DNA of 64,000 nt from Burkholderiales bacterium (GTDB taxonomy: Bacteria > Pseudomonadota > Gammaproteobacteria > Burkholderiales > Ga0077523): contig JAIEQG010000013.1 of assembly GCA_019747905.1 (NCBI GenBank), positions 50,482 to 114,481 on the forward strand, given 5' to 3'. The position numbers were made by a program, and so were the translations under genes. A model generated the notes under the pieces. It searched no databases. It was not told where the DNA came from and worked only from the letters and a program-made list of their open reading frames with translations. Position 1 is the first letter of the stretch, and the number at the start of each line of letters is the position of its first letter. Below, in pieces: positions 9,757 through 60,379 of this stretch.

Positions 9757-10929
9757 TCAGCCCCCCGTCTTCGTGCCGGCGGCGGGCGCGCCCGCGGTGG
9801 CCGGCGGAGCCGACGGCAGCACCATCACCGGTGCGCCGTCGCGCATCTTCATCTGGCCGTCGGTCATGACGATGTCGTGATCCTTCAGGCCTTCGAGCAC
9901 TTCGACCTCACCCGGACGCCGCACGCCTAGCACCACCTTGGTGAGCACGGCCTTGCCGTCCACGATCTTGTAGACGAACGAATCGCGGCCCTGCGGCCAG
10001 ATGGCCTCTTCCGGGATGATGATGGCGTTGGGGCGCGACTCGAGCAAGATGCTCACGCGGCCGAACATGCCCGGCTTCAGCTTGACCTGGCTGTTCGGGA
10101 CCTGGGCCCGCGCCAGCACGGTGCGGCTCTTTTCGTCGACGGTGGGTTCGATCGCGTAGATGCGGCCCACGAACACGTCGTTCGGGAAGGCATCGGTGCG
10201 GATGCTGACCGTGAGCCCGGGCTTCAATTTGGAGACGTAGACTTCCGGCACGCGAAAATCGAGCTTGAGCGAACTCACGTTCTCGAGGCGCACGATGTCG
10301 TCGCCGGCCTTCACGTACGCACCGGGGCTGATCAGTCGCAGGCCCACGATGCCGCTGAAGGGGGCCTCGACCGTGGATTTGGCGAGTGCCACTTCATCCT
10401 GCTGCTGCTTGGCGAGGGCAACATCCATGCTGCCCTTGGCGACGTCCACGGCATCCTGGCTCACGAACTTCTGCGCGAGCAGTTCCTTGGCGCGCTCGTA
10501 GCGCTGGCGCTCCTTGGTTGCGTCGGCGGTCGAACCGGCCAGCCTCGCCTGGTACTCGGACGGGTCGAGGGTTACCAGCTTGGCGCCCTTCTGGACCGCC
10601 TGACCTTCCTGGAAGTTGAGCGCCATGACGCGGCCCGGAATTTCCGAGCGGATCACCACGGACTCTGCGGGGAGCAGCGTGCCGACCGCGGTGATGTCGT
10701 TCTCGACCTTGCCTACGCGCACCGGCTCGGCCTTCACGGGGAGTCCCATGGGCTTGGCTGGGCCGCCGGCGGCCGGACCGCCTGGCTTCGGCGCATCGCC
10801 GGCCTTGGTCTCGGCCGGCTTTGCTGCTCCGGGCGAGGGCGGCTTCGATTCGGAGTTGCTCCCGCAGCCGACCATCATCAAAGCGGCCAGTGCGGCCGGC
10901 AGGAGTGAAACGGACAACGGACGGCGCAT
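9757..10929 (-). CDS. RND efflux periplasmic adaptor (membrane fusion protein), lipoprotein
   Basis: Start at ATG 10929. MRRPLSVSLLPAALAALMMVGCGS is a lipobox. The remainder has coiled-coil and beta-barrel MFP regions. There is a 5-nt gap to the RND permease. Confidence 0.9.
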   Translation of the reverse strand: MRRPLSVSLLPAALAALMMVGCGSNSESKPPSPGAAKPAETKAGDAPKPGGPAAGGPAKPMGLPVKAEPVRVGKVENDITAVGTLLPAESVVIRSEIPGRVMALNFQEGQAVQKGAKLVTLDPSEYQARLAGSTADATKERQRYERAKELLAQKFVSQDAVDVAKGSMDVALAKQQQDEVALAKSTVEAPFSGIVGLRLISPGAYVKAGDDIVRLENVSSLKLDFRVPEVYVSKLKPGLTVSIRTDAFPNDVFVGRIYAIEPTVDEKSRTVLARAQVPNSQVKLKPGMFGRVSILLESRPNAIIIPEEAIWPQGRDSFVYKIVDGKAVLTKVVLGVRRPGEVEVLEGLKDHDIVMTDGQMKMRDGAPVMVLPSAPPATAGAPAAGTKTGG

Positions 10930-11139
10930 GATTTTCACTGGAGAAGCCTCGAATGATGCGTGCAGCGGTGAAAAAACCCCCGGCGCCATCTTCTCTCTCG
11001 AGAATGAGGCGCCGCGGACACTGAGGTTGGTCGCCGCTGGGATGCATTCCTACCCCTACGTCTTCCAGGCGGCGGTCTGGTGCTGACCAAAGGGTCAGTA
11101 ATTGCTCCTTATCATAGCGGAGTTTACTCGCCCTTCGCC

Positions 11140-12042
11140 ATGCGCTTATCCCTCGAAGCCCTCGCGACTCTCGATGCCATCGCCCGCCGCGGCAGCTTCG
11201 CCGCGGCCGCCGAGGAGTTGAATCGCGTGCCCTCGGCCGTGACCTACACCGTCCAGAAACTCGAGCAGGATCTCGGCGTGCCGCTGTTCGATCGCAGCGG
11301 CCACCGCGCGAAACTGACCCCCGCCGGCGCCGAACTGCTGCGCGAAGGCCGCCACCTCCTGCGCTCGGCTGCGGAGATCGAGCGCCGGGTCCAGCGCCTC
11401 GCCGAGGGTTGGGAGTCCGAGCTTGCCATTGCGGTGGACGACATCATCGCGCTCGAGCGCATCTATCCGCTGATGGCGCGGTTCTACGCCCTTAATCCGG
11501 GGACGCGGTTGCGTGTAGGCGCGGAAGTGCTGGCCGGTTCGTGGGATGCCCTGCAGTCCGGCCGGGCCGACCTCGTGATCGGCGCCTCCGGCGACCCACC
11601 GCCCGAGGGCGGTTGTTCGCTGCAGCCCATGGGCGTGGTGGCGTTCGATTTCGTGGTCGCGCCGAACCATCCGCTCGCGGCTGCGCCGGAACCGCTGGCG
11701 CCGGACGCCATCCTCGAATACCGCGCCATCCTGGTCGCGGACAGTTCCCGTACCCTGCCGGCGCGCACCACCGGCCTCATCTCGGGCCAGGATTGCCTGA
11801 CGGTGCCAAGCATGCGCGCGAAGATCGACGCCCATGTGGCGGGCCTGGGGGTAGGCTATCTGCCGGCGCATCGGGCGCGCCCGCTCGTCGCCGCAGGCTC
11901 TCTGGTGACCAAGTCCGTACTGGAATCCAAGCCGACCGCGCAGCTCTACGTTGCCTCGCGACCGCGGGGATCGGGCAAAGCGCTGAAGTGGTTCCTCACC
12001 CAGCTCGAAGATCCGGCAACGCTCGGATCCTTTCTTGCCTGA
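11140..12042 (+). CDS. LysR family transcriptional regulator
   Basis: MRLSLEALATLDAIARRGSFAAAAEELNRVPSAVTYTVQKLEQDLGVPLFDRSGHRAKLTPAG. Divergent from the efflux operon. Confidence 0.9.
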   Translation: MRLSLEALATLDAIARRGSFAAAAEELNRVPSAVTYTVQKLEQDLGVPLFDRSGHRAKLTPAGAELLREGRHLLRSAAEIERRVQRLAEGWESELAIAVDDIIALERIYPLMARFYALNPGTRLRVGAEVLAGSWDALQSGRADLVIGASGDPPPEGGCSLQPMGVVAFDFVVAPNHPLAAAPEPLAPDAILEYRAILVADSSRTLPARTTGLISGQDCLTVPSMRAKIDAHVAGLGVGYLPAHRARPLVAAGSLVTKSVLESKPTAQLYVASRPRGSGKALKWFLTQLEDPATLGSFLA

Positions 12043-12119: not shown

Positions 12120-12542
12120 TCAGGTCAGATTGCCGCGGCGTCCCGCGGGACAGGCCCGGCGCATGGCGATCATGGACTCGGCCTCGCGGTCGCGGCGCAT
12201 TTCCTCGCGGACCTGATCGATGTCGAGGTTCTGCGCGCGCCGCAGGAGTGCTTCCAACTGGGGCGCCGAGAACGCGGCCGGGCCGCAGTACAGCCCGACA
12301 CCCTTTCGGAACAGCACCAGTGCCGGTGCCGCCTCGATGCCGAACAGCCCGGCCAGCGCATTTGAATCCGTCCAGGGGACGCGCCGGAAGGCCACTTCGG
12401 GCATGCGCTGCATCACATCCTCGAAGGCCGCGCGGAAGCCCCGGCCTGCTTCACTGCCCTCGTCGTCGAACACGATCGCGAGGGTCGCGTGGGCCGCGAT
12501 CAGCGCGTCGAGAGTGTCCTGGTCGGGGAGCGTGGCGACCAT
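12120..12542 (-). CDS. thioredoxin-fold protein lacking the CxxC active site, with a basic C-terminal extension
   Basis: 140 aa. The pattern LAIVFDDEG...FRRVPWTDSNALAGLFGIEAAPALVLFRKGVGL looks like a Trx fold, but no CxxC is present. It starts 10 nt after the thioredoxin gene on the same strand. Confidence 0.7.
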   Translation of the reverse strand: MVATLPDQDTLDALIAAHATLAIVFDDEGSEAGRGFRAAFEDVMQRMPEVAFRRVPWTDSNALAGLFGIEAAPALVLFRKGVGLYCGPAAFSAPQLEALLRRAQNLDIDQVREEMRRDREAESMIAMRRACPAGRRGNLT

Positions 12543-12552
12543 AGGCAGGCCC

Positions 12553-12936
12553 TCAGGACTGGGCGGCGGGCTCTGCCGCGTCGCGGGCCGCGATTTCGCT
12601 GTGGACTTTTGCCATGTCGATCCCCTTCACCTCTTCGATCAGCTTTTCGAAGGCGCCGCCCATCATAGCGCCGGGCTGGGAGAAGAGGATGATCTGCTCG
12701 CGAAACACCATCAGGGTCGGAATCGCGCGGATGCTGAACTGCTGGGCGATCTCCGGCACGTCCTCGGTGTTGAGCTTGGCGAAGACGACGTCGGGATGCT
12801 GTTCCGACGTGGCCTCGAACACCGGGGCGAAGGCGCGACAGGGGCCGCACCACGGCGCCCAGAAATCGATGATCACGATGTCGTTGCCCTCGATCGTGGA
12901 CTCGAAGTTGTCCAGGGTCAGTTCGACGGTTGCCAT
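12553..12936 (-). CDS. thioredoxin (WCGPC active site)
   Basis: IVIIDFWAPWCGPCRAFAPVFE...IRAIPTLMVFRE. 127 aa with a short C-terminal tail. Confidence 0.9.
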   Translation of the reverse strand: MATVELTLDNFESTIEGNDIVIIDFWAPWCGPCRAFAPVFEATSEQHPDVVFAKLNTEDVPEIAQQFSIRAIPTLMVFREQIILFSQPGAMMGGAFEKLIEEVKGIDMAKVHSEIAARDAAEPAAQS

Positions 12937-13158: not shown

Positions 13159-13632
13159 ATGAAACCGAACATCGGCCTGAGCGATGCCCAACGCAAGGGT
13201 GTCGTGGAGATCCTGAACCGCCTGCTCGCAGACGAGGTGGTGCTGTACATCAAGACCCGCAACTACCATTGGAATGTGGAAGGTCCCGACTTCAGCGAGA
13301 CACACAAGTTCTTCGAGGCGCAGTACGAAGAGCTCGACGAGATCATGGACGACGTCGCGGAGCGCGCGCGGGCCCTGGGCGGGCGCGCCGCAGGTTCGCT
13401 CGCGGCGTATCTCAAGCTCACCAAGCTGAAGGAAGACGACGGCAAGACCGTGGGGGAGAAAGCGATGATCAAGGACTTGCTGATCAGCCACGAAACCATC
13501 ATCCAGCGCCTGCGCAAGGAAGTGGAGATCGTCGGCGACAAGTTGGGCGATGTCGGCACCAACGACTTCATCACCGGCTTGATCGAGGCGCACGAGAAGA
13601 TGGCGTGGATGCTGCGCTCGTACTTGGCGTGA
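13159..13632 (+). CDS. dps: Dps family DNA-protection/ferroxidase protein
   Basis: ATG at 13159 with GGAG 7 nt upstream. Sequence MKPNIGLSDAQRKGVVEILNRLLADEVVLYIKTRNYHWNVEGPDFSETHKFFEAQYEELDEIMDDVAERARALGG. Confidence 0.9.
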   Translation: MKPNIGLSDAQRKGVVEILNRLLADEVVLYIKTRNYHWNVEGPDFSETHKFFEAQYEELDEIMDDVAERARALGGRAAGSLAAYLKLTKLKEDDGKTVGEKAMIKDLLISHETIIQRLRKEVEIVGDKLGDVGTNDFITGLIEAHEKMAWMLRSYLA

Positions 13633-13742: not shown

Positions 13743-15437
13743 ATGCCTGACGCGCGTCCCGTCATTCTCGCCGTCGACGACGAACCGGAGGTCTCGCGCG
13801 CCGTGGCGCGCGATCTGCGCGAAGCCTACGGCGAGCACTACCGGATCCTCCGTGCCGAGTCGCCGCTCACGGCCATGGAGACCCTGACCGAACTCCGGTT
13901 GCGCAGCGATACCGTCGCCTTGCTGTTGTCGGACCAGCGCATGCCCGAGATGAGCGGCGTCGAGTTTCTCGAGCAGGCCTCCAAGCTGTTCCCCACCGCC
14001 CGCCGGGTTCTGCTCACGGCGTACACCGATACCGAAGCAGCGATCCGCGCGATCAATCGCGTGCGCCTCGACTACTACCTGATGAAACCGTGGCATCCGC
14101 CGGAGCACAACCTCTATCCGGTGCTCGGCGACCTCCTGGAAGATTGGCGCTCCACGCAGAAGCCGCAGTTCCGCGGCGTGCAGCTCATCGATCATCGCTG
14201 GTCGCCGCTGGGCCACGAGCTGCGTGAATTTCTCTCGGGCAATCACGTGCCCTACCGGCGGCTCGATGTCGAGCATGATCCGGAAGCGCAGCGCATCATC
14301 GAACTGCTCACGCCCGAAGAGAAGACAGCGTGCAATGCCCCCAAACTGAAGGGCCTGCCGCTGGTGGTGCTGCCGGACGGCACGCGCCTGCAGCGGCCCA
14401 GCCCGACCGTGCTGGCAGAGCGTCTCGGAATCTCGACCCACAGCGCGACACAGGTGTACGACCTCGTGATCGTGGGCGGCGGACCGGCGGGCCTCGCGGC
14501 CGCGGTTTACGGTGCCTCCGAAGGGCTCAAGAGCGCGATCGTCGAGCGCGAAGCCCCGGGCGGCCAGGCCGGCACCAGTTCCCGCATCGAGAACTACCTC
14601 GGTTTCCCTTCGGGCTTGAGCGGCGCCGACCTGTCGCGCCGCGCCGTTGCGCAGGCGCGGCGTTTCGGTGCCGATCTGATTCTCACGCAGGCTGTCACGG
14701 GTTTGCGCGTGCAGGCGCCCTACAAGTTCGTGCAGTTGTCGGATGGCTCCGAAGTCGGCTGCCGCGCGCTGGTGATCGCGAGCGGCGTGCAGTACCGCAA
14801 GTTGCCGGCACCCGGCCTCGAGGAACTGGCCGGCGTCGGTGTGTTCTATGGGGCTGCGACCACCGAGACCGCCGTCTGCCAGGGCCAGGACGTGGTGATC
14901 GTCGGCGGCGGCAATTCGGCAGGGCAGGGCGCGATCTTCCTGGCGGACTACGCGCGGAGCGTCACCATCATCGTGCGCGGCGAAGGGCTCGCGGCGACGA
15001 TGTCGCGTTATCTCATCGACCGCATCGAAGGGACCGCCAACATCACGGTGTTGCCTTTCACGCAGGTGGCGCGAGTGAGTGGCACCGATCACCTGGAAAC
15101 CGTGACACTCGGCAACGTGCGCACCGGCGAAGAGGAAACCCGCGACGTCGCGGCGCTGTTCATCTTCATCGGTGCCGAGCCGCGCACCGATTGGCTGGGC
15201 GATTCCGCGCTGCGCGACGATCATGGCTTCATCCTGACCGGCCGTGACCTGCTGGTCGACGGCAAATGGCCCCCGGTGTGGACCCTCGAGCGCGACCCGT
15301 TCCTGCTAGAGACCTGCATCCCCGGCGTGTTCGCGGCCGGCGACGTGCGCCACGGTTCGATGAAACGGGTCGCCGCAGCCGTGGGCGAAGGGTCCATGGC
15401 CGTGTCGTTCGTCCACCAGTTTCTCGCCGACCTGTGA
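13743..15437 (+). CDS. fused response regulator / thioredoxin-reductase-like FAD oxidoreductase (no CxxC redox motif)
   Basis: The N-terminal REC domain reads VILAVDDEPEV...LLLSDQRMPEMSGVEFL...YLMKPW. A roughly 110-aa linker domain follows, then YDLVIVGGGPAGLAAAVYGASEGL and VVIVGGGNSAGQGAIFLA dinucleotide-binding motifs. Where TrxR has CATC, this sequence reads YGAATTETAVCQG. Confidence 0.9.
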   Translation: MPDARPVILAVDDEPEVSRAVARDLREAYGEHYRILRAESPLTAMETLTELRLRSDTVALLLSDQRMPEMSGVEFLEQASKLFPTARRVLLTAYTDTEAAIRAINRVRLDYYLMKPWHPPEHNLYPVLGDLLEDWRSTQKPQFRGVQLIDHRWSPLGHELREFLSGNHVPYRRLDVEHDPEAQRIIELLTPEEKTACNAPKLKGLPLVVLPDGTRLQRPSPTVLAERLGISTHSATQVYDLVIVGGGPAGLAAAVYGASEGLKSAIVEREAPGGQAGTSSRIENYLGFPSGLSGADLSRRAVAQARRFGADLILTQAVTGLRVQAPYKFVQLSDGSEVGCRALVIASGVQYRKLPAPGLEELAGVGVFYGAATTETAVCQGQDVVIVGGGNSAGQGAIFLADYARSVTIIVRGEGLAATMSRYLIDRIEGTANITVLPFTQVARVSGTDHLETVTLGNVRTGEEETRDVAALFIFIGAEPRTDWLGDSALRDDHGFILTGRDLLVDGKWPPVWTLERDPFLLETCIPGVFAAGDVRHGSMKRVAAAVGEGSMAVSFVHQFLADL

Positions 15438-16822
15438 TCGGGCTCGAACTCCTCCGCGCCATGCCGTTGTTCAGCGGCCTGTCGGACGAACGTCTCGATT
15501 GGGTCTGCCACCGGCTCACCGACTTCGAACTTGCGCCCGGTGAGGCACTGATCCACGAAGGCGACGAGGGCGCGAGCTTCGTGGTCCTGATCGAAGGCTC
15601 GTTGCTCATTACCAAGCGCTCCAACAGCGTCGAACTGCCGGCCGGTCGCCAGGATGCACCGGCCTTCATGGGCGAGATTCCGCTGCTCTCCGGTACGCCG
15701 GCCCAGGTCACGGTGCGCTCCGCCGGGCACAGCCGCCTGCTGCGCCTGGACGAGGATACCTTTCGCGAACTGATCGCGACCGACGTCACCTTCAGCCGCA
15801 CCATCTTCCAGACGCTCTCGAGGCGCGTTTCGGGCCTCGAATCCTTCGTGCGCCAGCGCGAGAAGCTGGCCTCCCTCGGAACGCTGACTGCCGGCCTCGC
15901 CCACGAGCTCAACAACCCCGCGGCGGCCGTGGCACGTTCCACCGACCGCATGCGGGCGATCGCGCGCGATCTCGATTCCATCACGTGCGAACTGCACGAC
16001 TCCGATCTTCCGCAGGAGGCGATGTACGCTCTGAAGGCGCTGAGCGACACGGCCATCAGCGGGCCCGTGCCGGCGCGCACCCCGATCGAAGAGAGCGATC
16101 GCGAAGAAGCCTTCGGCGAGTGGCTGGACGGCCGCAAGGTGCACGATGCATGGAAGATCGCTGCCGTGTTCGCTGCATCGAAGCTCGAGTTGCCGGCCGT
16201 GCAATCACTGCTCGGCAGCGCGGGCGATGCCGTCTCGCCGGCGGCCCGCTGGCTCGCGGCCACCGTCGAACTCGCGGCGCTGGTCGACGAAGCCAACCAC
16301 GGTGCCTCGCGCATCGCCGATCTGGTGAAGGCGATGAAGTCCTATTCGTACATGGACCAGGCGCCGAAGCAGGAGGTGGACATTCACGAAGGCATCGAAG
16401 CCACGCTCACCATCATGCGCCACAAGCTGAAGCACGGCGTCGAAGTGGTGCGCGAATACGATCGGTCGTTGCCGAAACTGTCGGTGTACGGCTCGGAGCT
16501 CAATCAGGTGTGGACCAACCTGATCGACAACGCGTTGGACGCGATGGACTGCAAGGGCACACTTACTATCCGCACGCGGCGCGACGGCGGCGCCGCCGTC
16601 GTCGAAGTGGGTGATTCAGGTCCCGGCATCCCGCCGGACGTGCAGACGCGGCTGTTCGAACCGTTCTTCACCACGAAGCCCGTCGGCAAGGGCACCGGTC
16701 TCGGGCTCGATATCACCTGGCGTATCGTCGTGAATCGCCACGGCGGTACCATCAAGGTCCATTCGAAGCCGGGCGACACGAAATTCCTGGTGGTGCTGCC
16801 GATCGATTCCGAGGTTCACTGA
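15434..16822 (+). CDS. cyclic-nucleotide-binding-domain sensor histidine kinase
   Basis: The GTG at 15434 overlaps the upstream stop (GTGA). The cNMP-binding-like N-terminus reads LRAMPLFSGLSDERLDWV...GEALIHEGDEGASFVVLIEGSL...FMGEIPLL. The HisKA H-box is LAHELNNPAAA. The HATPase motifs are NLIDNALDAM, DSGPGIP and GTGLGL. Confidence 0.9.
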   Translation: MIGLELLRAMPLFSGLSDERLDWVCHRLTDFELAPGEALIHEGDEGASFVVLIEGSLLITKRSNSVELPAGRQDAPAFMGEIPLLSGTPAQVTVRSAGHSRLLRLDEDTFRELIATDVTFSRTIFQTLSRRVSGLESFVRQREKLASLGTLTAGLAHELNNPAAAVARSTDRMRAIARDLDSITCELHDSDLPQEAMYALKALSDTAISGPVPARTPIEESDREEAFGEWLDGRKVHDAWKIAAVFAASKLELPAVQSLLGSAGDAVSPAARWLAATVELAALVDEANHGASRIADLVKAMKSYSYMDQAPKQEVDIHEGIEATLTIMRHKLKHGVEVVREYDRSLPKLSVYGSELNQVWTNLIDNALDAMDCKGTLTIRTRRDGGAAVVEVGDSGPGIPPDVQTRLFEPFFTTKPVGKGTGLGLDITWRIVVNRHGGTIKVHSKPGDTKFLVVLPIDSEVH

Positions 16823-16837
16823 CCCCCGAGGTACGCG

Positions 16838-17095
16838 ATGACCTGCACCCATCTCGACACCATTCAGGAAGTCACCCCGAGCGGCCGCGGCTGCAAGGAG
16901 TGCCTGGAGACGGGCGACACCTGGGTGCACCTGCGCCTGTGCCTCACCTGCGGCCACGTCGGATGCTGCGATTCGTCGAAGAACCGGCATGCGACGAAGC
17001 ACTTCCATGTGACGCAGCACCCGATCGTGCGGTCATTCGAACCCGGGGAAGACTGGGCTTGGTGCTTTGTCGACAGCGAATTCCTCGAAGTCTGA
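16838..17095 (+). CDS. UBP-type zinc-finger domain protein (stand-alone zf-UBP)
   Basis: 85 aa: CTHLDTI...GCKECLETGDTWVHLRLCLTCGHVGCCDSSKNRHATKHFHVTQHPIVRS. The Cys/His pattern matches zf-UBP. It starts 15 nt after the kinase stop. Confidence 0.85.
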   Translation: MTCTHLDTIQEVTPSGRGCKECLETGDTWVHLRLCLTCGHVGCCDSSKNRHATKHFHVTQHPIVRSFEPGEDWAWCFVDSEFLEV

Positions 17096-17168
17096 CCTCG
17101 AGCTTGCGGGCAGAGCCCGACGATCATATGCATTGCGCGGTAGGAACAACCTTGGTGTGGAGGCAAGG

Positions 17169-19199
17169 ATGACGAAGAAAAGCCCTGTCGGGACGAACAG
17201 ATGTTCGAACCTACTCAGGCGCGCGCTGGTTCACCATCTCGCCGCCGGATGCTCCTTCATGGCAGCGGCGTTCCCGGTGACAGCGATGGACGCAAGGGAC
17301 TTCGGTGCCGTTCGTTCACCTTTCCTCCCGCGGTTGGTCGCAGACGACGACCCTGAACTTTGTTCGATTGTATTGGCGTTGGCGCGGCGTACCTTTCTCT
17401 CCGGAGACTCTGACATGTGGGTCAATCGAGTCGATGGGAACGGTATTCGATGGGTCCCGTGGGAGGATCAGACGGCCTCTGAGGACTCGGCGCGCGGTCC
17501 CATACGTTCGATCGAACTTGATCTTGACGGCACCGGAACCAAACAGACTCTCGCCCTGCGCCACTACTTTCACACGTGGCGAGGTGAGAACTATTACGCC
17601 TTTGTCTTTCCGTCAAAGGGCAGTCTTGAATCGGTGATCAAGGATCCAAAGGCGGATTCCGACAATGGGGATACCGCAGAATCTCGATTGCCCGCCGATC
17701 CGGGGAGTCTGGATCCGGGTATTCGCTACTACCCGGATGGAGAGACGACGACTGGCGAAGCGGCAGAGGGAAGTGAATGGGAGGACCACCAACTCTTCGA
17801 GTTTCGGGGGCGCTACTACTTCTACGGATATCAGCATTGGCTGCACGGTCCACTGCAGAGGAGCCTTCCTGTCTATCGCCTGCAGGGGAACGGTCGATTG
17901 AAACCCGCTTGCAGGGTACAGATGTGGCCCATGGAGGACCGGGTCGCCGCCGCTGATTCCGTCGAGGGTGTTGCTGGTTACTTTGGAGTGCTTCGCCGCA
18001 TCGGTACTGGAGGTGTCGGCGACTGCGGAACGATGCATGCCAACGATATTCACGATTGGGGCGCCGAATTTGCGATGATGAATGCCATCATCCGCCCGTG
18101 GACCCTGTCCGAGCGGCGTCGCGAGGGCTCTGCGAAGTTGGAGCGAACGTTGATGGCGGATTGGAGTTTCGCTGGTGTCTGGAACCGCCGCGAGTATCAG
18201 ACCCTGCTGGAACATGAACCCTCGGCTTTGCAAGGCCTCGAGCGGCACTTCCAGAAGGCATTCGGGCTAAAGACAGACAACGCGCGGCGACAGGCGAAAC
18301 TCGCACTTGATCAGATAGTCGCAGCCTGGATCATGGTACCTGGCAGCTATGGAGACTTCCAAACGGTTGATCCGTTCCGGCAACGGATCATTCAAGGGAC
18401 CCTTACGAAAAGCGACATAGTCGAGTCGGGCAGTCCGAAGGAAGAAGGACGCGATGATCAATTGATTTTTCCCGTGTCGCCCTACCTCCACGACGCCGTG
18501 GAGTCCTCAAGTATTGCAAAGAGCTTGCTCGACGCCGGCTTCAGAGTTGATGCCAGGAACGACTTTGGCAAGACAGCCTTGATGATGGCTGCGCACATGA
18601 ATCGACCGGACGTGGTGGCACTGCTGCTTCGGCGCAAGGCCGCTGTTGATGCAAGGACCAAGGAGGTGAATCAGTGCGGCATGCAGATAAACCGAAGCGG
18701 TCGAACTGCGTTGATGTACGCAGCCGAGAATGCTGGCATCGAAGTGCTTCGATTGCTGGTCGAAGCGGGTGCGGACAGGAAGGCGGTGGACAGCCGCGGC
18801 GATGGCGTCGCTTACTATCTTGCCAAGAATCCCTACCTGACCGACGCGCAGAAACAGATGGATGTGGGCGCTCTCGTCAATAGCGTGCGACCGGTCCAGG
18901 GACCGAGCTTCAAATGCGGACCTGCATTGAGCGCCATAGATCGCCTGGTGTGCTCGGATGGCGTGCTTGCAATGCAAGATCGGTATCTCGCCGATGCCTA
19001 CGCCCGGTGGCTATCCCGCAAGGGCGAAGAAGCACGCAGGGACCAACGCACATGGCTCGCGCGCAGAAACAAGACCTGCGGCGCATTGACGAAGGACGAA
19101 AGTTTATCGTGCCTGCAGCAGTCCACACGTACGCGAATCCGCTACCTCCAGAATCGCTTGGCTGAGCAGGGAACAGACGCAGCCGGCGCGCGCCGCTGA
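17169..19199 (+). CDS. exported protein: unknown ~440-aa N-terminal domain + ankyrin repeats + DUF1311/LprI-like C-terminal domain
   Basis: ATG at 17169 with GGAGG upstream. The hydrophobic leader is HHLAAGCSFMAAAFPVTAMDA. Ankyrin repeats include GKTALMMAAHMNRPDVVALLLRRKAAVDA and GRTALMYAAENAGIEVLRLLVEAGADR. The C-terminus reads FKCGPALSAIDRLVCSDGVLAMQDRYLADAYARWL...QRTWLARRNKTCG...LSCLQQSTRTRIRYLQNRL. GC content is visibly lower than the flanks. Confidence 0.8.
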   Translation: MTKKSPVGTNRCSNLLRRALVHHLAAGCSFMAAAFPVTAMDARDFGAVRSPFLPRLVADDDPELCSIVLALARRTFLSGDSDMWVNRVDGNGIRWVPWEDQTASEDSARGPIRSIELDLDGTGTKQTLALRHYFHTWRGENYYAFVFPSKGSLESVIKDPKADSDNGDTAESRLPADPGSLDPGIRYYPDGETTTGEAAEGSEWEDHQLFEFRGRYYFYGYQHWLHGPLQRSLPVYRLQGNGRLKPACRVQMWPMEDRVAAADSVEGVAGYFGVLRRIGTGGVGDCGTMHANDIHDWGAEFAMMNAIIRPWTLSERRREGSAKLERTLMADWSFAGVWNRREYQTLLEHEPSALQGLERHFQKAFGLKTDNARRQAKLALDQIVAAWIMVPGSYGDFQTVDPFRQRIIQGTLTKSDIVESGSPKEEGRDDQLIFPVSPYLHDAVESSSIAKSLLDAGFRVDARNDFGKTALMMAAHMNRPDVVALLLRRKAAVDARTKEVNQCGMQINRSGRTALMYAAENAGIEVLRLLVEAGADRKAVDSRGDGVAYYLAKNPYLTDAQKQMDVGALVNSVRPVQGPSFKCGPALSAIDRLVCSDGVLAMQDRYLADAYARWLSRKGEEARRDQRTWLARRNKTCGALTKDESLSCLQQSTRTRIRYLQNRLAEQGTDAAGARR

Positions 19200-19277: not shown

Positions 19278-19544
19278 TCACCCCCTGCTGCGCTCCCGCC
19301 GATTCGTCAGGGTCGCCCGAACGGACTCCACCAATCCGGAAGTCAGTGGTGGAGTAGCGGCATGCGGTTCGGCCACCAGAAAGCGGCCTGTCTTGATCAG
19401 CTCTACGGGCAGGGGCTCCGCGCAGATCTCCACGATGCCGTCGGAAAGACGTATCGACAGAGGTGTCCCAGGGGTCAGCCCCGCCCCTTCCCTGATGTCC
19501 TTGGGGATCAAGACTCTTCCAGCCCTATCGATGGCAGTGTTCAT
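19278..19544 (-). CDS. AbrB/MazE/SpoVT-domain protein, VapB-like antitoxin (no adjacent toxin gene)
   Basis: 88 aa: MNTAIDRAGRVLIPKDIREGAGLTPGTPLSIRLSDGIVEICAEP...GRFLVAEPHAATPPLTSGLVESVRATL. The rest of track ORF 19278..20168 is a spurious extension. Confidence 0.7.
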   Translation of the reverse strand: MNTAIDRAGRVLIPKDIREGAGLTPGTPLSIRLSDGIVEICAEPLPVELIKTGRFLVAEPHAATPPLTSGLVESVRATLTNRRERSRG

Positions 19545-19726
19545 GGCGTTGATACTACCGTGGAGACTGCCATGATCGGGACGCTTCGTGCCAGCACGGA
19601 GCGCACCGCTCCCGAGCCTTGGTAGCGCCGCGCGGGTCATTGCCGAAGCAACAACCGCCACTCGGCATCGCACGCTGATGCGAAACCGAGCGGTGCGGCG
19701 ACATCGGAGCGGTACTCGGTGTCGAG

Positions 19727-20068
19727 CTATCGAACGCCAAGCAACTCCACCTCGAACACCAGCGTCGCATTCGGCGGTATCACCCCACCGGCCCCACGCG
19801 CGCCGTAGCCGAGTTCCGGCGGGATCGTGAGCTTGCGCTTGCCGCCCACCTTCATGCCCTGCACGCCCTCGTCCCAGCCGGCGATCACCTGCCGCTGGCC
19901 GAGTCCGAAGACGAACGGATCGTGGCGATCCTTGCTCGAGTCGAATTTCGAGCCGTCGGTCAGCCAGCCGGTGTAGTGCACGGTGACCTGGCGGCCGGCG
20001 GTGGCTTCGTCGCCGTCGCCGACGGTGAGTTCGTCGATGATGAGGCCGGTTGCGGTGGTGTTGGGCAT
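19727..20068 (-). CDS. FKBP-type peptidyl-prolyl cis-trans isomerase
   Basis: [89 protein letters not shown]. Confidence 0.9.
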
Positions 20069-20169
20069 GGCAGTCTCGCTGTCGTGAGGAAGTCGCGCAT
20101 TGTAGACGGGCGCGCGGTCCCGTATCGTCGCGGCGAACGCCAATAAGACGCGTGCACGGAGGCAACACG

Positions 20170-21029: not shown

Positions 21030-21497
21030 TTGATGGAACGTTCCGACGGCGTCTGCCGCCTGGTGCTCGACACGAACGTCTGGCTCGACTGGCTGGTATT
21101 CGCGGACGCTTCGGTTCAGGCGATTCGCACTGGGGTCCAGGCGCGGCGAATCGAGATAGTGATGAACCCGCCTTGTCGCGACGAACTCGAGCGCGCACTA
21201 GGCTACCCCTTTCGGGGGGAAGTGGCGCCCGCCGACGTCCAGGCGCTCTGGATGGTGGAAGCCCTCGGCATGGTCCGGCAGATCAAGTTGAACGGGGCCT
21301 CCGTGGTGGGTCGGCTGCCGCGATGTCACGACCCCGACGACCAGAAGTTTCTCGAGCTTGCCCTCGATGCCAGTGCGGACTTTCTGGTGACGCGCGACAA
21401 GGCGCTGCTCGTGTTCGCCCGCCGCCGCTTCCAGCCGCTGCCGTTTCGCGTCATGACGCCGCTGCAGTTCAGTGAGGTAAACGCACTGTCGGCTTGA
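21030..21497 (+). CDS. PIN-domain protein (stand-alone putative toxin/RNase type)
   Basis: RLVLDTNVWLDWLVF...DPDDQKFLELALDASADFLVTRDKALL gives the conserved acidic PIN residues. It starts 11 nt after the dioxygenase gene. No small antitoxin ORF lies adjacent. Confidence 0.75.
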   Translation: MMERSDGVCRLVLDTNVWLDWLVFADASVQAIRTGVQARRIEIVMNPPCRDELERALGYPFRGEVAPADVQALWMVEALGMVRQIKLNGASVVGRLPRCHDPDDQKFLELALDASADFLVTRDKALLVFARRRFQPLPFRVMTPLQFSEVNALSA

Positions 21498-58296: not shown

Positions 58297-60379
58297 GGGA
58301 CCCGCCGCCGATTTCGGGAATGACGACGGTGAACTTGGAGCCCTCGCGCGGCGCGCTGCTCACCGCGATGCGGCCACCGTGCAGTTCCACCGATTTGCGC
58401 ACGATCGCGAGTCCGAGCCCGGCGCCGGCAATGTGGTTGACGTTGCGCCCGCGATGGAAGGTCTCGAAGAGCCGCGCCTGGTCCTCGATCGGAATGCCGA
58501 TGCCGCGATCCTCCACTTCGAGCAGGATCTCGCGGCCGTCGCAGACCACCCGCACGTCGACGGTCGACTCGGTGGGCGAATACTTGATGGCGTTGGTGAG
58601 CAGATTGCCGAGAATGTGCCGGAGCAGTTCTTCATCGACGACGTGCTCGGCACCCACGTTCTCGAACCGCAGGAGCACTTGCTGCTCGGCGTGAGCTGCG
58701 GCTCGCGTTTCATCGACGATGCGCTGGCACAGCGCTCGCAGATCGAGCCGTCGTGGACGAAACTCCAGCCGCCCGGCTTCGGAGCGACCGATCAGGAGAA
58801 TGTCCTCGAGCATGCGGGTCATGCGTTGGACCGCACCCTTGATGCCACCGATGAGATCGGCCCGCTCGCGTTCCGTGAGGCGTTCGCCGTAGTCGGCCAG
58901 CAGTTCGGTCGACGACAGGATGGTCGCGAGCGGGGTGCGGAACTCATGCGAGGTCATCGACACGAAACGCGACTTGAGCTCGTTCAACTCCTTCTCGCGC
59001 GCCAGCGCATCCACCAGTTCCGCCTCCGCGGCCTTGCGCCGCGACAGATCCACCACGGTCCAGATGGTCCCCACGTTGAGGTCGCGCCGATCGATCGCGC
59101 AGCCGCTCACCAGGCACCAGAACGTGGATCCATCCTTGCGCCGCACCCGGCCTTCGGTGGTGAACAAGCCCTTGTCCACGAGCTGGCGGTTGATGACCGG
59201 GCCGAGTTCGTCGTAAGCCTCCGGGGAGCCATAGGTGTGGCGCACGGACTGGCCCACCAGCTCCCCTGCCCGATAGCCCAGCATGTCGCACTCGAAGTGC
59301 TGGTTGACCCAGACGTACTCCCGATTGCGCACCAGGGCGATCCCGATCACCGACGACTGCAGGATGGCCTCGCGCTCCGACAGCGTGCGGCGCAGATCCT
59401 CTTCGAGCTTGCGGCGGGAGGTGATGTCCATCAGCACCCAGATGCTGCCCAAGGCCGGATCGTCGGACTGGATCGCCCGGCCGCTGATCAGGCACCAGAA
59501 CAGGGAGCCGTCGCTCCGCTTCATGCGTGCGCGTGTCTCGTAGATGCGGCCCTGCGCGAGCAGCGGATAGGCTTCGGCGCCGAGGCGCTCGTAGTCCTCG
59601 CGCGACGGATAGAGCATCGCGGTGTTCTTGCCGGTCAGCGAACCCCGGGGGTAGCCGAAGAGGTGCTCCTCCAGCATGCGGTTGCACCACTCCAGGCGGC
59701 GGTTGCGCAGCAGGCCGATGCCGACCACGGAGTGCTCCAGGATGGCGGTCTTCTCGGCGAGTGCCACCTGAAGGCGTTCCTCGCTGTGCCGCAGCGCATC
59801 GTCGGCCGCCGTCAACTCGGCGAGCTTCTGCGTGAGCTCGGCGGTGCGCTCCGCGATGCGTTGCTCGAGGTCGCGGTTGAGTGCCTCGATCTCGGCCTTG
59901 CTGCGTCGGCTTTCGCTGATGTCCGAAAAGGTCACGACCGCGAACTTGCGGCCGTCGGCCCGCGTGATCGGTCGGAAGCTCACCAGCGAATCGAAGACGC
60001 TGCCGTCGCTGCGGCGAATACCCCATTCGAGCGGAATCTTCGGCGAATCCGCGAACAGGGCCGCGAGGAACTTCTCCTTCACCGCCACGACGCTGGGCGG
60101 GGCGCTCATCGAATAGTGCTGGCCGATGAGGTCTTCCGGTCGATGCCGGACCAGTTCGCAGAAGAACGGGTTGACGCGCACGAACCGGCCCTGCTCGTCG
60201 ATCACGCAGATGCCGATTCGAGCGACGTCGAACACGGTCGCGTACAAATCGAGATCGAGTTGATCGAGGTCCACGGCGGGCTGCGGGCGCTGGTGACGGC
60301 TGTCCGGTCGGCGAGGAGCCGCATTATCCTCCCGTCGCGCCGGGCCCGCGGCCGATCGATGCGGGCCGCCGGCGCCCAC
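58289..60379 (-). CDS. cytoplasmic multi-PAS sensor histidine kinase (start uncertain)
   Basis: There are three PAS-like segments and a coiled-coil linker. The H-box is SRFVSMTSHEFRTPL. The HATPase motifs are LLTNAIKYS, DRGIGIP and GAGLGLAI. No TM segments were seen. The candidate GTG at 60379 has GGAG 7 nt upstream. The track start at 60550 would overlap the divergent hydrolase gene. Confidence 0.85.
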   Translation of the reverse strand: MGAGGPHRSAAGPARREDNAAPRRPDSRHQRPQPAVDLDQLDLDLYATVFDVARIGICVIDEQGRFVRVNPFFCELVRHRPEDLIGQHYSMSAPPSVVAVKEKFLAALFADSPKIPLEWGIRRSDGSVFDSLVSFRPITRADGRKFAVVTFSDISESRRSKAEIEALNRDLEQRIAERTAELTQKLAELTAADDALRHSEERLQVALAEKTAILEHSVVGIGLLRNRRLEWCNRMLEEHLFGYPRGSLTGKNTAMLYPSREDYERLGAEAYPLLAQGRIYETRARMKRSDGSLFWCLISGRAIQSDDPALGSIWVLMDITSRRKLEEDLRRTLSEREAILQSSVIGIALVRNREYVWVNQHFECDMLGYRAGELVGQSVRHTYGSPEAYDELGPVINRQLVDKGLFTTEGRVRRKDGSTFWCLVSGCAIDRRDLNVGTIWTVVDLSRRKAAEAELVDALAREKELNELKSRFVSMTSHEFRTPLATILSSTELLADYGERLTERERADLIGGIKGAVQRMTRMLEDILLIGRSEAGRLEFRPRRLDLRALCQRIVDETRAAAHAEQQVLLRFENVGAEHVVDEELLRHILGNLLTNAIKYSPTESTVDVRVVCDGREILLEVEDRGIGIPIEDQARLFETFHRGRNVNHIAGAGLGLAIVRKSVELHGGRIAVSSAPREGSKFTVVIPEIGGGSRA

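Follow-up and report, generated by a model that had tools for sequence, protein, structure and literature searches.

ZnF-UBP zinc fingers are textbook eukaryotic ubiquitin biology, and the question raised by the locus described here is what a stand-alone bacterial zinc finger of this type does directly behind the two genes of a two-component system. The locus lies on a stretch of 64,000 nucleotides from a Burkholderiales bacterium (GenBank assembly GCA_019747905.1, contig JAIEQG010000013.1, positions 50,482 to 114,481 of the forward strand), which as a whole is referred to as the window. With a confidence somewhat above even, we favour the reading that the UBP-type zinc finger (zf-UBP) protein would be a facultative third subunit, i.e. 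a detachable sensor or regulatory module, of a system consisting of a kinase with CAP-like domain and a response regulator in which a receiver (REC) domain is joined to a flavoprotein (REC-flavoprotein). That the protein is a functional third component had been proposed in an earlier note on this DNA, and the proposal is supported by permuted synteny, by the agreement between zinc-finger subtype and operon order, and by natural fusion to the kinase. The operon comprises the following features:

13743..15437, forward strand: response regulator of 564 amino acids with REC domain, a linker of ~100 amino acids and a low-Mr thioredoxin reductase (TrxR)-like flavin adenine dinucleotide (FAD)/NAD(P)H domain (Pfam Response_reg and Pyr_redox_2)
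15461..16822, forward strand: cytoplasmic histidine kinase of 453 amino acids with CAP/cyclic nucleotide monophosphate (cNMP)-binding-like domain, H-box and HATPase_c (Pfam, gene calls of relatives)
16828..16831, forward strand: Shine-Dalgarno-like tetramer GAGG, 6 nt 5' of the zf-UBP ATG and within the 15-nt gap between the genes (read from the sequence)
16838..17095, forward strand: stand-alone UBP-type zinc-finger gene with ATG start, 85 amino acids plus stop (list of open reading frames (ORFs), Pfam, PDB 2IDA)

The 85-residue protein, MTCTHLDTIQEVTPSGRGCKECLETGDTWVHLRLCLTCGHVGCCDSSKNRHATKHFHVTQHPIVRSFEPGEDWAWCFVDSEFLEV, is encoded at exactly the coordinates given in the earlier note and contains every motif quoted there, and the spacing of 15 nt was likewise confirmed (kinase stop codon TGA at 16820-16822, ATG at 16838). 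The position of the GAGG tetramer and the short gap are consistent with co-transcription and coupled translation of kinase and zf-UBP. The overlapping ORFs 16864..17166 (reverse), 16616..17020 (reverse) and 16900..17172 (forward) had no support comparable to that of the zf-UBP frame. In a profile search, residues 19-83 matched Pfam zf-UBP (PF02148) with E 5e-15 and 55.9 bits, well over the cut-off of 22.7, as expected from the Cys/His pattern; no NCBIfam model was matched. Residues 1-82 were aligned to PDB entry 2IDA, a bacterial 'hypothetical protein' of 102 residues (E 2e-34), and weaker PDB matches (E 1e-5 to 1e-2) were obtained to the ZnF-UBP of USP16, USP49, HDAC6, USP20, USP5 and USP33. 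All 8000 scored database clusters passed E ≤ 1e-3 and are homologous, the best 120 of them being 70-88% identical to the window protein and coming from many phyla; homologues are named 'UBP-type zinc finger domain-containing protein' by both NCBI and JGI. A HMMER search of 1.84 billion representatives gave 3472 zf-UBP matches at E ≤ 1e-3, 2103 at 1e-10 and 260 at 1e-30 (50% clustering). The window gene is a genuine member of the stand-alone bacterial zf-UBP family of the 2IDA type.

The linkage to the two-component pair was assessed from both sides. The forward set consisted of 80 zf-UBP-centred loci from species-representative genomes, the neighbours of which were identified by tblastn with the window proteins and by ORF clustering; the reverse set consisted of 80 REC-flavoprotein-centred metagenome loci, 57 of them with at least 400 bp and 39 with at least 1500 bp on both flanks. 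Synteny with the pair, as had been read from the window, is conserved in the closest relatives, in 17-19 of the 80 forward loci and in 18 of the 57 reverse loci. In the forward set, a full-length REC-flavoprotein (54-58% identical) and a kinase both adjoin zf-UBP in 17 loci, the kinase lies at a contig edge in two further ones, and a single locus has a convergent REC-flavoprotein only. About a quarter of the zf-UBP loci in species-representative genomes therefore adjoin the pair, in at least five phyla (Acidobacteriota, Chloroflexota, Bacillota with Heliomicrobium, Actinomycetota with Rubrobacteraceae, and Cyanobacteriota), to which the window adds Pseudomonadota as the sixth. In the reverse test, zf-UBP was present in 18/57 loci with flanks of at least 400 bp and in 14/39 with at least 1500 bp, and in 16 of the 18 it lies on the same strand, 18-170 nt after the last gene; a kinase of the window type adjoins the REC-flavoprotein in almost all 80 reverse loci. 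If placed randomly, a gene of one or two copies would be expected at this position in well under 1% of genomes, and the linkage is enriched more than 50-fold over such placement.

The order of the genes for response regulator (RR), histidine kinase (HK) and zinc finger (zf) is permuted: RR-HK-zf, RR-zf-HK, zf-RR-HK and zf-HK-RR were found in the zf-UBP-centred loci, and a fifth order, HK-RR-zf, predominates among the REC-flavoprotein-centred loci that bear zf-UBP. Zinc fingers of the HK-RR-zf class share 49-55% identity with the window protein, and the GHVG of the latter is replaced in them by G[VA]TL. The G[VA]TL type was found only downstream of the response regulator (17/17; 15 HK-RR-zf loci and 2 RR-zf loci with the kinase off the contig) and the GHVG type only in RR-HK-zf and its permutations (22/22), so that subtype and operon order agree in 39/39 cases, and this correlation speaks for long co-inheritance in two lineages. 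In the cultured cyanobacterium Hassallia byssoidea VB512170 (locus L166), zf-UBP directly follows a kinase, though other genes part kinase from response regulator; the insertions in this module are a PhdYeFM/PIN toxin-antitoxin pair and a GNAT acetyltransferase, with zf-UBP staying right after the last kinase. Two paralogous CAP-like kinases per REC-flavoprotein (e.g. HK-RR-HK) were also seen, in loci L164 and L165 (Paraburkholderia), L166, L057, L064, L084, L089 and L092.

Covalent linkage to the kinase was found in the Chloroflexia. On a 1-Mb contig of a Chloroflexia metagenome-assembled genome (MAG; locus L034), a single ORF of 565 amino acids at 9992..11689, directly after the REC-flavoprotein gene, comprises zf-UBP, CAP-like domain and kinase. 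Among the 120 best homologues retrieved with this fusion, 49 carry PF02148, PF00027 and PF02518 at 50-100% identity, and they come from four independent sources (NCBI, ENA, JGI, Logan), so the fusion is not an assembly artefact; hmmsearch detected an N-terminal zf-UBP in 51 of the same 120, which corresponds to about 50 Chloroflexota clusters. No fusion of zf-UBP to a response regulator was found among the best 120 matches of a chimeric query of both. In the best-supported reading, the stand-alone zf-UBP protein would act in trans in the way that the fused domain of the Chloroflexia acts in cis.

A kinase-free arrangement was observed in 7 of the 80 forward loci, in which zf-UBP is paired with a single protein consisting of a CAP-like domain, the same linker as in the response regulator and the same flavoprotein domain devoid of the CxxC motif. 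In five of them the two genes lie close together, in one order or the other; these five come from Bryobacterales, Nitrospiria, Spirochaetia, a betaproteobacterium and an unclassified bacterium. The module thus occurs in two versions, a one-component version with CAP-like input and flavoprotein output, and a two-component version in which kinase and REC are inserted between the two. Since zf-UBP accompanies both, the CAP-like domain is its constant neighbour.

As for the partners, the REC-flavoprotein that had been placed upstream was borne out as a protein with REC and pyridine-nucleotide-disulphide-oxidoreductase domains. Its REC domain matched Response_reg with 2.1e-13 (Pfam), and the translation contains VDDEP, LLLSDQRMP, LLTAY and LMKPW, i.e. 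the acidic pocket, the phospho-acceptor Asp, the Thr and the Lys. In alignments to PDB structures, AATT/GAAT of the response regulator faces CATC/CAAC of solved TrxRs, so that both redox-active cysteines are gone, and VRGEGLAA faces the NADPH 2'-phosphate motif HRRDEFRA; the score against TIGR01292 (thioredoxin-disulfide reductase) was 228.9 bits, under the cut-off of 343.45. The CxxC replacement is likewise present in homologues from other loci, and a different Cys, five residues downstream of the lost motif, is mostly conserved in the family. The idea that one catalytic Cys is retained was rejected, since the PDB alignments show both to be gone and the conserved Cys to lie five residues further on, and a TrxR-type disulphide reductase was rejected by the lost CxxC and the sub-cut-off TIGR01292 score. 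In databases the response regulator is labelled 'thioredoxin reductase (NADPH)' or 'FAD-dependent oxidoreductase'. The linker of ~100 residues between REC and FAD domain gave no Pfam match at E 0.1; a weak Thioredoxin_6 match in one homologue raises the suspicion of a thioredoxin-like fold. The closest response regulator, 93% identical, comes from a Burkholderiales MAG.

The kinase matched Pfam cNMP_binding with 1.5e-13 (51 bits vs 27.5) and HATPase_c with 1.7e-23. Its start was set at ATG 15461, inferred from the sequence and from gene calls of 453 amino acids in relatives; an alternative in-frame GTG at 15434 overlaps the response-regulator stop. The H-box LAHELNNP and the motifs NLIDNALDA and GTGLGL were recognised in the translation, and with the signature residues of both proteins present, kinase and response regulator form a two-component system. 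The upstream gene had been described as a cNMP kinase, of which the cNMP_binding plus HATPase_c kinase ending at 16822 stands; its cNMP cassette is without the phosphate-binding Arg. With the cassette Arg in …GE…PR[ST]A… taken as the criterion for a cNMP receptor, the window cassette reads FMGEIPLLSGTPAQVTV and has no Arg, which is absent in 68 of 72 kinases of the family, the window kinase included; PRTATV or PRMASV is kept only in the Chloroflexia zf-UBP fusions. Judged by this residue, the ligand of most of these cNMP-like domains is probably not a cyclic nucleotide. Proteins of ~955-990 amino acids (P0173-P0240, e.g. from Terrimicrobiaceae) with cNMP_binding, HisKA and several HATPase-type Pfam matches share ~40% identity with the kinase, of which they appear to be double-length relatives. 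A second HATPase-type segment was noted in the window at 58316..58624 on the reverse strand (41% identity over 104 amino acids to the kinase C-terminus).

A flavoprotein without a disulphide of its own makes an external acceptor plausible, and as the main rival reading the flavoprotein might use the zinc finger as its redox partner or substrate, with flavin electrons passing to the Cys/His metalloprotein or to its oxidised cysteines and kinase and REC acting only as the switch. TrxR-like ferredoxin-NADP reductases serve ferredoxin, and rubredoxin reductase serves rubredoxin, in an analogous manner. Such a role would fit the ~30 of 80 loci in which zf-UBP adjoins TrxR-family flavoproteins (including the kinase-free pairs of CAP-like domain and TrxR and a canonical CATC TrxR), the flavoprotein gene immediately 5' of zf-UBP in the HK-RR-zf class, the fusion of a flavin-binding PNPOx domain to zf-UBP in one representative, and the invariant vicinal pair C43-C44. 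However, all module fusions found are with the kinase and none with the flavoprotein, no predicted metal site is, by alignment, a Cys4 site as needed for a rubredoxin-type iron centre, the 2'-phosphate-binding motif of the flavoprotein is altered, and an electron carrier makes little sense on ion transporters and a diadenylate cyclase, to which zf-UBP is fused elsewhere (see below). We consider a redox-partner role unlikely and return to the third-subunit reading with the zinc finger itself.

By alignment, the zf-UBP protein is predicted to be a three-zinc, cross-braced UBP-type finger, with putative sites C3/H5/C76/D79, C19/C22/C43 (or C44)/H51 and C35/C38/H55/H61. In the hidden Markov model alignment to the HDAC6/USP16 type, 11 of the 12 ligand positions are invariant Cys or His (C3, H5, C19, C22, C35, C38, C43, H51, H55, H61, C76), and the twelfth is the invariant Asp79, which takes the place of the fourth Cys of one HDAC6 zinc site. 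Also invariant in the family are W29, H31, L32, R33, G39, C44, D45, S47, P62, S66, E71, W73 and W75; position 77 is aromatic, being Tyr in most members and Phe in the window protein.

Three of these positions, W29 (invariant), W75 (97%) and Tyr/Phe77, align with the aromatic cage of HDAC6: in the profile alignment to 5G0F, W29 corresponds to the first pocket Trp, W75 to W1182 and Y/F77 to Y1184, residues which we take, from the HDAC6 and USP5 structures, to surround the Gly-Gly tail of ubiquitin. The conserved pocket positions raise the possibility that the zinc finger reads a free protein or peptide C-terminus, e.g. a ThiS/MoaD-type Gly-Gly tail, and recruits this ligand to the two-component system. 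In HDAC6 and USP5, R1155 and R221, respectively, hold the C-terminal carboxylate of ubiquitin Gly76; at this position the bacterial proteins read CCD-SS opposite CG-RY of HDAC6, with no Arg in any family member. A bacteria-specific insert of four residues, (H)LRx, follows directly after W29, and its invariant R33 might substitute for the missing Arg. No Gly-Gly C-terminus was found among 100+ flavoproteins and ~90 kinases, and their C-terminal tails were alike whether or not the locus carries zf-UBP; a zinc finger reading the tails of its own partners was rejected on the basis of these C-termini. Ubiquitin-like genes do not recur among the zf-UBP neighbours in the 80 forward loci, and several eukaryotic ZnF-UBP, e.g. 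USP33, are not known to bind ubiquitin either. Protein C-termini and ubiquitin-like sulfur carriers had been among the candidate ligands proposed for the window protein; with the Arg at the HDAC6 R1155 position not conserved and no Gly-Gly end on the partner proteins, we give a reader of C-termini only a small chance, though a carboxylate ligand may still be bound.

Domain architectures were surveyed in the best 150 of the 2103 representatives with E ≤ 1e-10; 25 were longer than 170 amino acids and 20 were Pfam-scanned. In 10/20, zf-UBP is C-terminal to a CPA2 Na+/H+ exchanger and/or to TrkA_N/TrkA_C (RCK) domains. It is also C-terminal to a CDF cation-efflux protein (1/20), to MFS transporters (2/20), to LtrA (1/20) and to the PNPOx flavin-binding domain (1/20), and N-terminal to a diadenylate cyclase (DAC) in 1/20; the remaining 4/20 have no other domain. 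The fusions collected are:

P0284, P0294, P0301, P0302, P0321, P0335, P0350, P0376, P0288, P0341, P0342, P0366, P0357: transporter-fused zf-UBP (CPA2/RCK, CDF, MFS)
L056 1348..2343 and P0285 (= L168 716..1690): two independent fusions of zf-UBP and DAC, ~325-331 amino acids

The C-terminal zf-UBP on antiporters explains the JGI name 'monovalent cation:H+ antiporter-2' on a zf-UBP fragment of 92 amino acids (P0047). Among the forward loci, a DUF5996 gene lies directly downstream of zf-UBP in 20/80 (L002, L005, L006, L008, L012, L015, L020, L042, L068 and others); its product has ~315 amino acids (PF19459, E 3e-138), and it starts 4-55 nt after a zf-UBP that is 75-80% identical to the window protein. 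DUF5996 has no PDB relative, and no paper on it was found in the literature searched; zf-UBP and DUF5996 are a second conserved partnership of the family. MFS transporter genes are near zf-UBP in 7/80 loci, and a canonical CATC thioredoxin reductase together with proline dehydrogenase in 4/80, all from related Acidobacteria.

No recurrent neighbour was found in 33/80 loci, and contexts as diverse as these would suit a general housekeeping zinc protein (buffer or chaperone) that is carried along in different operons and takes no direct part in the signalling pathway. The cross-phylum identity of 70-88% does not track context either, the window protein being nearer to DUF5996-linked than to many kinase-linked copies. 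Against this stand the covalent kinase fusion in ~50 clusters, the perfect co-divergence of subtype and operon type, the short same-strand spacing of 15-170 nt and the enrichment over random placement of more than 50-fold, and we regard a housekeeping role as highly improbable.

Across stand-alone, kinase-, cyclase- and transporter-fused zf-UBP, 22 positions are invariant (C3, C19, C22, G26, W29, L32, R33, C35, C38, G39, G42, C43, C44, S47, H51, A52, H55, H61, W73, W75, C76 and D79). These include nearly all predicted zinc ligands, H5 being replaced in one fusion. That the same positions are kept in all contexts argues for one conserved sensing chemistry over a partner-specific surface, and a surface invariant irrespective of the partner is more easily read as one site that senses a shared cue than as the place where one particular partner binds. 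Tentatively, and with some doubt, we propose for the family as a whole that bacterial zf-UBP may be a widespread sensor domain of the cytoplasm whose ligand or redox chemistry is the same throughout. Attached in cis or acting in trans, it would serve histidine kinases, diadenylate cyclases, Kef-like K+/H+ antiporters and CDF/MFS transporters and report thiol/electrophile stress, zinc status or a molecule with glycine-like carboxylate such as glutathione; the tail reader of USP5 and HDAC6 would then be a later re-use.

For the system in the window, the zinc finger as third subunit would be a detachable input module, sensory or regulatory, that reads a cellular cue via its invariant zinc/Cys/aromatic surface. 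It would bind the kinase, most likely at or near the N-terminal CAP-like domain, and thereby alter autophosphorylation; the kinase would phosphorylate REC, and the attached CxxC-less flavoprotein would be switched. We favour zinc occupancy, electrophile stress or thiol oxidation as the cue, since the protein has three predicted Cys/His zinc sites and a vicinal pair of invariant cysteines, since the domain occurs in flavoprotein, Kef-like and CDF contexts, and since Dps and thioredoxin genes lie nearby.

Several points weigh against a third subunit. The cue just named is a guess, with a small free-carboxylate ligand as the alternative. Both locus sets are best-scoring matches, which are phylogenetically non-independent and include many Acidobacteriota and many truncated contigs. 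About two thirds of the REC-flavoprotein/kinase loci are without zf-UBP within the stretches examined, so the module can do without it, and ~60% of zf-UBP genes lie outside the two-component context, so the protein does not serve this system exclusively. Where the order is HK-RR-zf, the neighbour of the zinc finger is the response regulator and not the kinase. An AlphaFold2 model of the zf-UBP protein (alignment of 30 sequences) reached a mean pLDDT of 47 and a pTM of 0.31 and was unusable, so the fold was assigned from Pfam and the identity to PDB 2IDA and the pocket was judged by sequence alignment only.

Around the operon, the following genes were annotated:

11140..12042, forward strand: LysR regulator (Pfam)
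12120..12542, reverse strand: thioredoxin (Trx)-like protein (Pfam)
12553..12936, reverse strand: thioredoxin (Pfam)
13159..13632, forward strand: Dps/ferritin-like protein, 110 nt 5' of the response regulator (Pfam)
17169..19199, forward strand: ankyrin-repeat gene with C-terminal LprI (lysozyme-inhibitor-like) domain, 676 amino acids, 73 nt 3' of zf-UBP (Pfam)

In the closest relatives (L162 and L163, zf-UBP 88% and 79% identical, one of them on a 5.29-Mb contig), the order is RND, LysR, Trx-like, Trx, Dps, REC-flavoprotein, kinase, zf-UBP. No Dps or Trx gene was found in the 80 zf-UBP-centred loci, and the 80 response-regulator-centred loci gave one weak thioredoxin (Trx1) match. Trx and Dps were rejected as module partners, being conserved in the closest relatives only; LysR, Trx-like, Trx and Dps are a local oxidative-stress context outside the widely conserved module.

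That zf-UBP is the last gene of the operon stands insofar as it is the last conserved one; in the window, the ankyrin/LprI gene follows on the same strand 73 nt downstream. The latter has a G+C content of 57-60%, vs 65-69% in the flanks, and is lacking in both closest relatives, whose zf-UBP gene is followed by a convergent FKBP gene. From its low G+C and this absence it looks like a recent insertion, and it was probably acquired horizontally at the 3' end of the operon. Its product had a weak PADLOC match to PDC-M72A through the ankyrin repeats. Among the operon proteins, zf-UBP and response regulator had no match to the PADLOC defence-system models and the kinase only weak ones via its cNMP-like domain, and an anti-phage defence system was dismissed for want of PADLOC support. 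No convincing terminator was found between zf-UBP and the ankyrin gene, no sigma-70-like promoter was found for the operon, and no Rfam RNA family was detected anywhere in the 64-kb window. Further downstream, the ORF 19278..20168 (reverse strand) has an AbrB/SpoVT-like C-terminal segment, judged from the translation only, and a PIN-domain protein is encoded at 21030..21497 (forward strand), assigned because the corresponding gene of L162 matches Pfam PIN_3; lying between FKBP/PhyH and Lon, both are possible toxin-antitoxin remnants.

With regard to known systems, PDB 2IDA, which we take to be RPA1320 of Rhodopseudomonas palustris, is a structural-genomics nuclear magnetic resonance structure of a protein of the same family and length class that shares all invariant Cys/His/Trp/Arg/Asp positions. 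The entry records no function, the literature searched yielded no paper on it, and operon context and kinase and transporter fusions are not part of its record. The eukaryotic ZnF-UBP (USP5, HDAC6, USP16, USP49) belong to the same Pfam family and, by alignment, share the three-zinc ligand pattern (11/12) and the aromatic residues at the pocket positions. The bacterial proteins differ from them by the (H)LRx insert with R33, by CCD-SS in place of CG-RY and by Asp79 for the fourth Cys; they are stand-alone or fused to kinases, cyclases or transporters, whereas the eukaryotic domains are found on deubiquitinase or deacetylase domains.

In RsrA-type ZAS anti-sigma factors and in Hsp33, oxidation frees Cys-bound zinc and changes partner binding, and small accessory proteins of two-component systems include Sda, KipI, PmrD, SafA and MzrA. 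All of these are small modulators of a signalling partner, as the zf-UBP protein would be by the favoured mechanism (its redox sensitivity being a proposal here), but they have no sequence or fold relationship to it.

The window response regulator shares both the architecture (REC plus pyridine-nucleotide-disulphide oxidoreductase) and the kinase pairing of the 'TrxB-type' response regulators. These are listed in two-component censuses, e.g. SCO7297/SCO7298 of Streptomyces coelicolor in P2CS/P2RP (PMC9739842, PMC9953108), in which the class appears without a function, a third gene or the CxxC loss. For fused response regulator/thioredoxin reductase proteins, the literature searched gave only such census listings, and no paper was found there on the function of bacterial zf-UBP or on its link to this two-component system. 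The family name, one structure and the TrxB-type class are thus already public; what is new is a putative two-component accessory whose fold had been known from ubiquitin biology only.

Judging from the residues lost, the partners also call for new labels: the 'thioredoxin reductase' response regulator is predicted to be unable to reduce disulphides by the TrxR mechanism, and most 'cNMP' domains of these kinases are without the cNMP-binding arginine. The module with its input and output so re-labelled occurs in many soil and freshwater phyla. If the zf-UBP protein is indeed a third subunit, this would give the bacterial zf-UBP family its first testable function, with the kinase as partner and with cyclic di-AMP cyclase, K+/H+ and metal transporter fusions, and would offer a tangible approach to the question of how the ubiquitin-tail pocket evolved.

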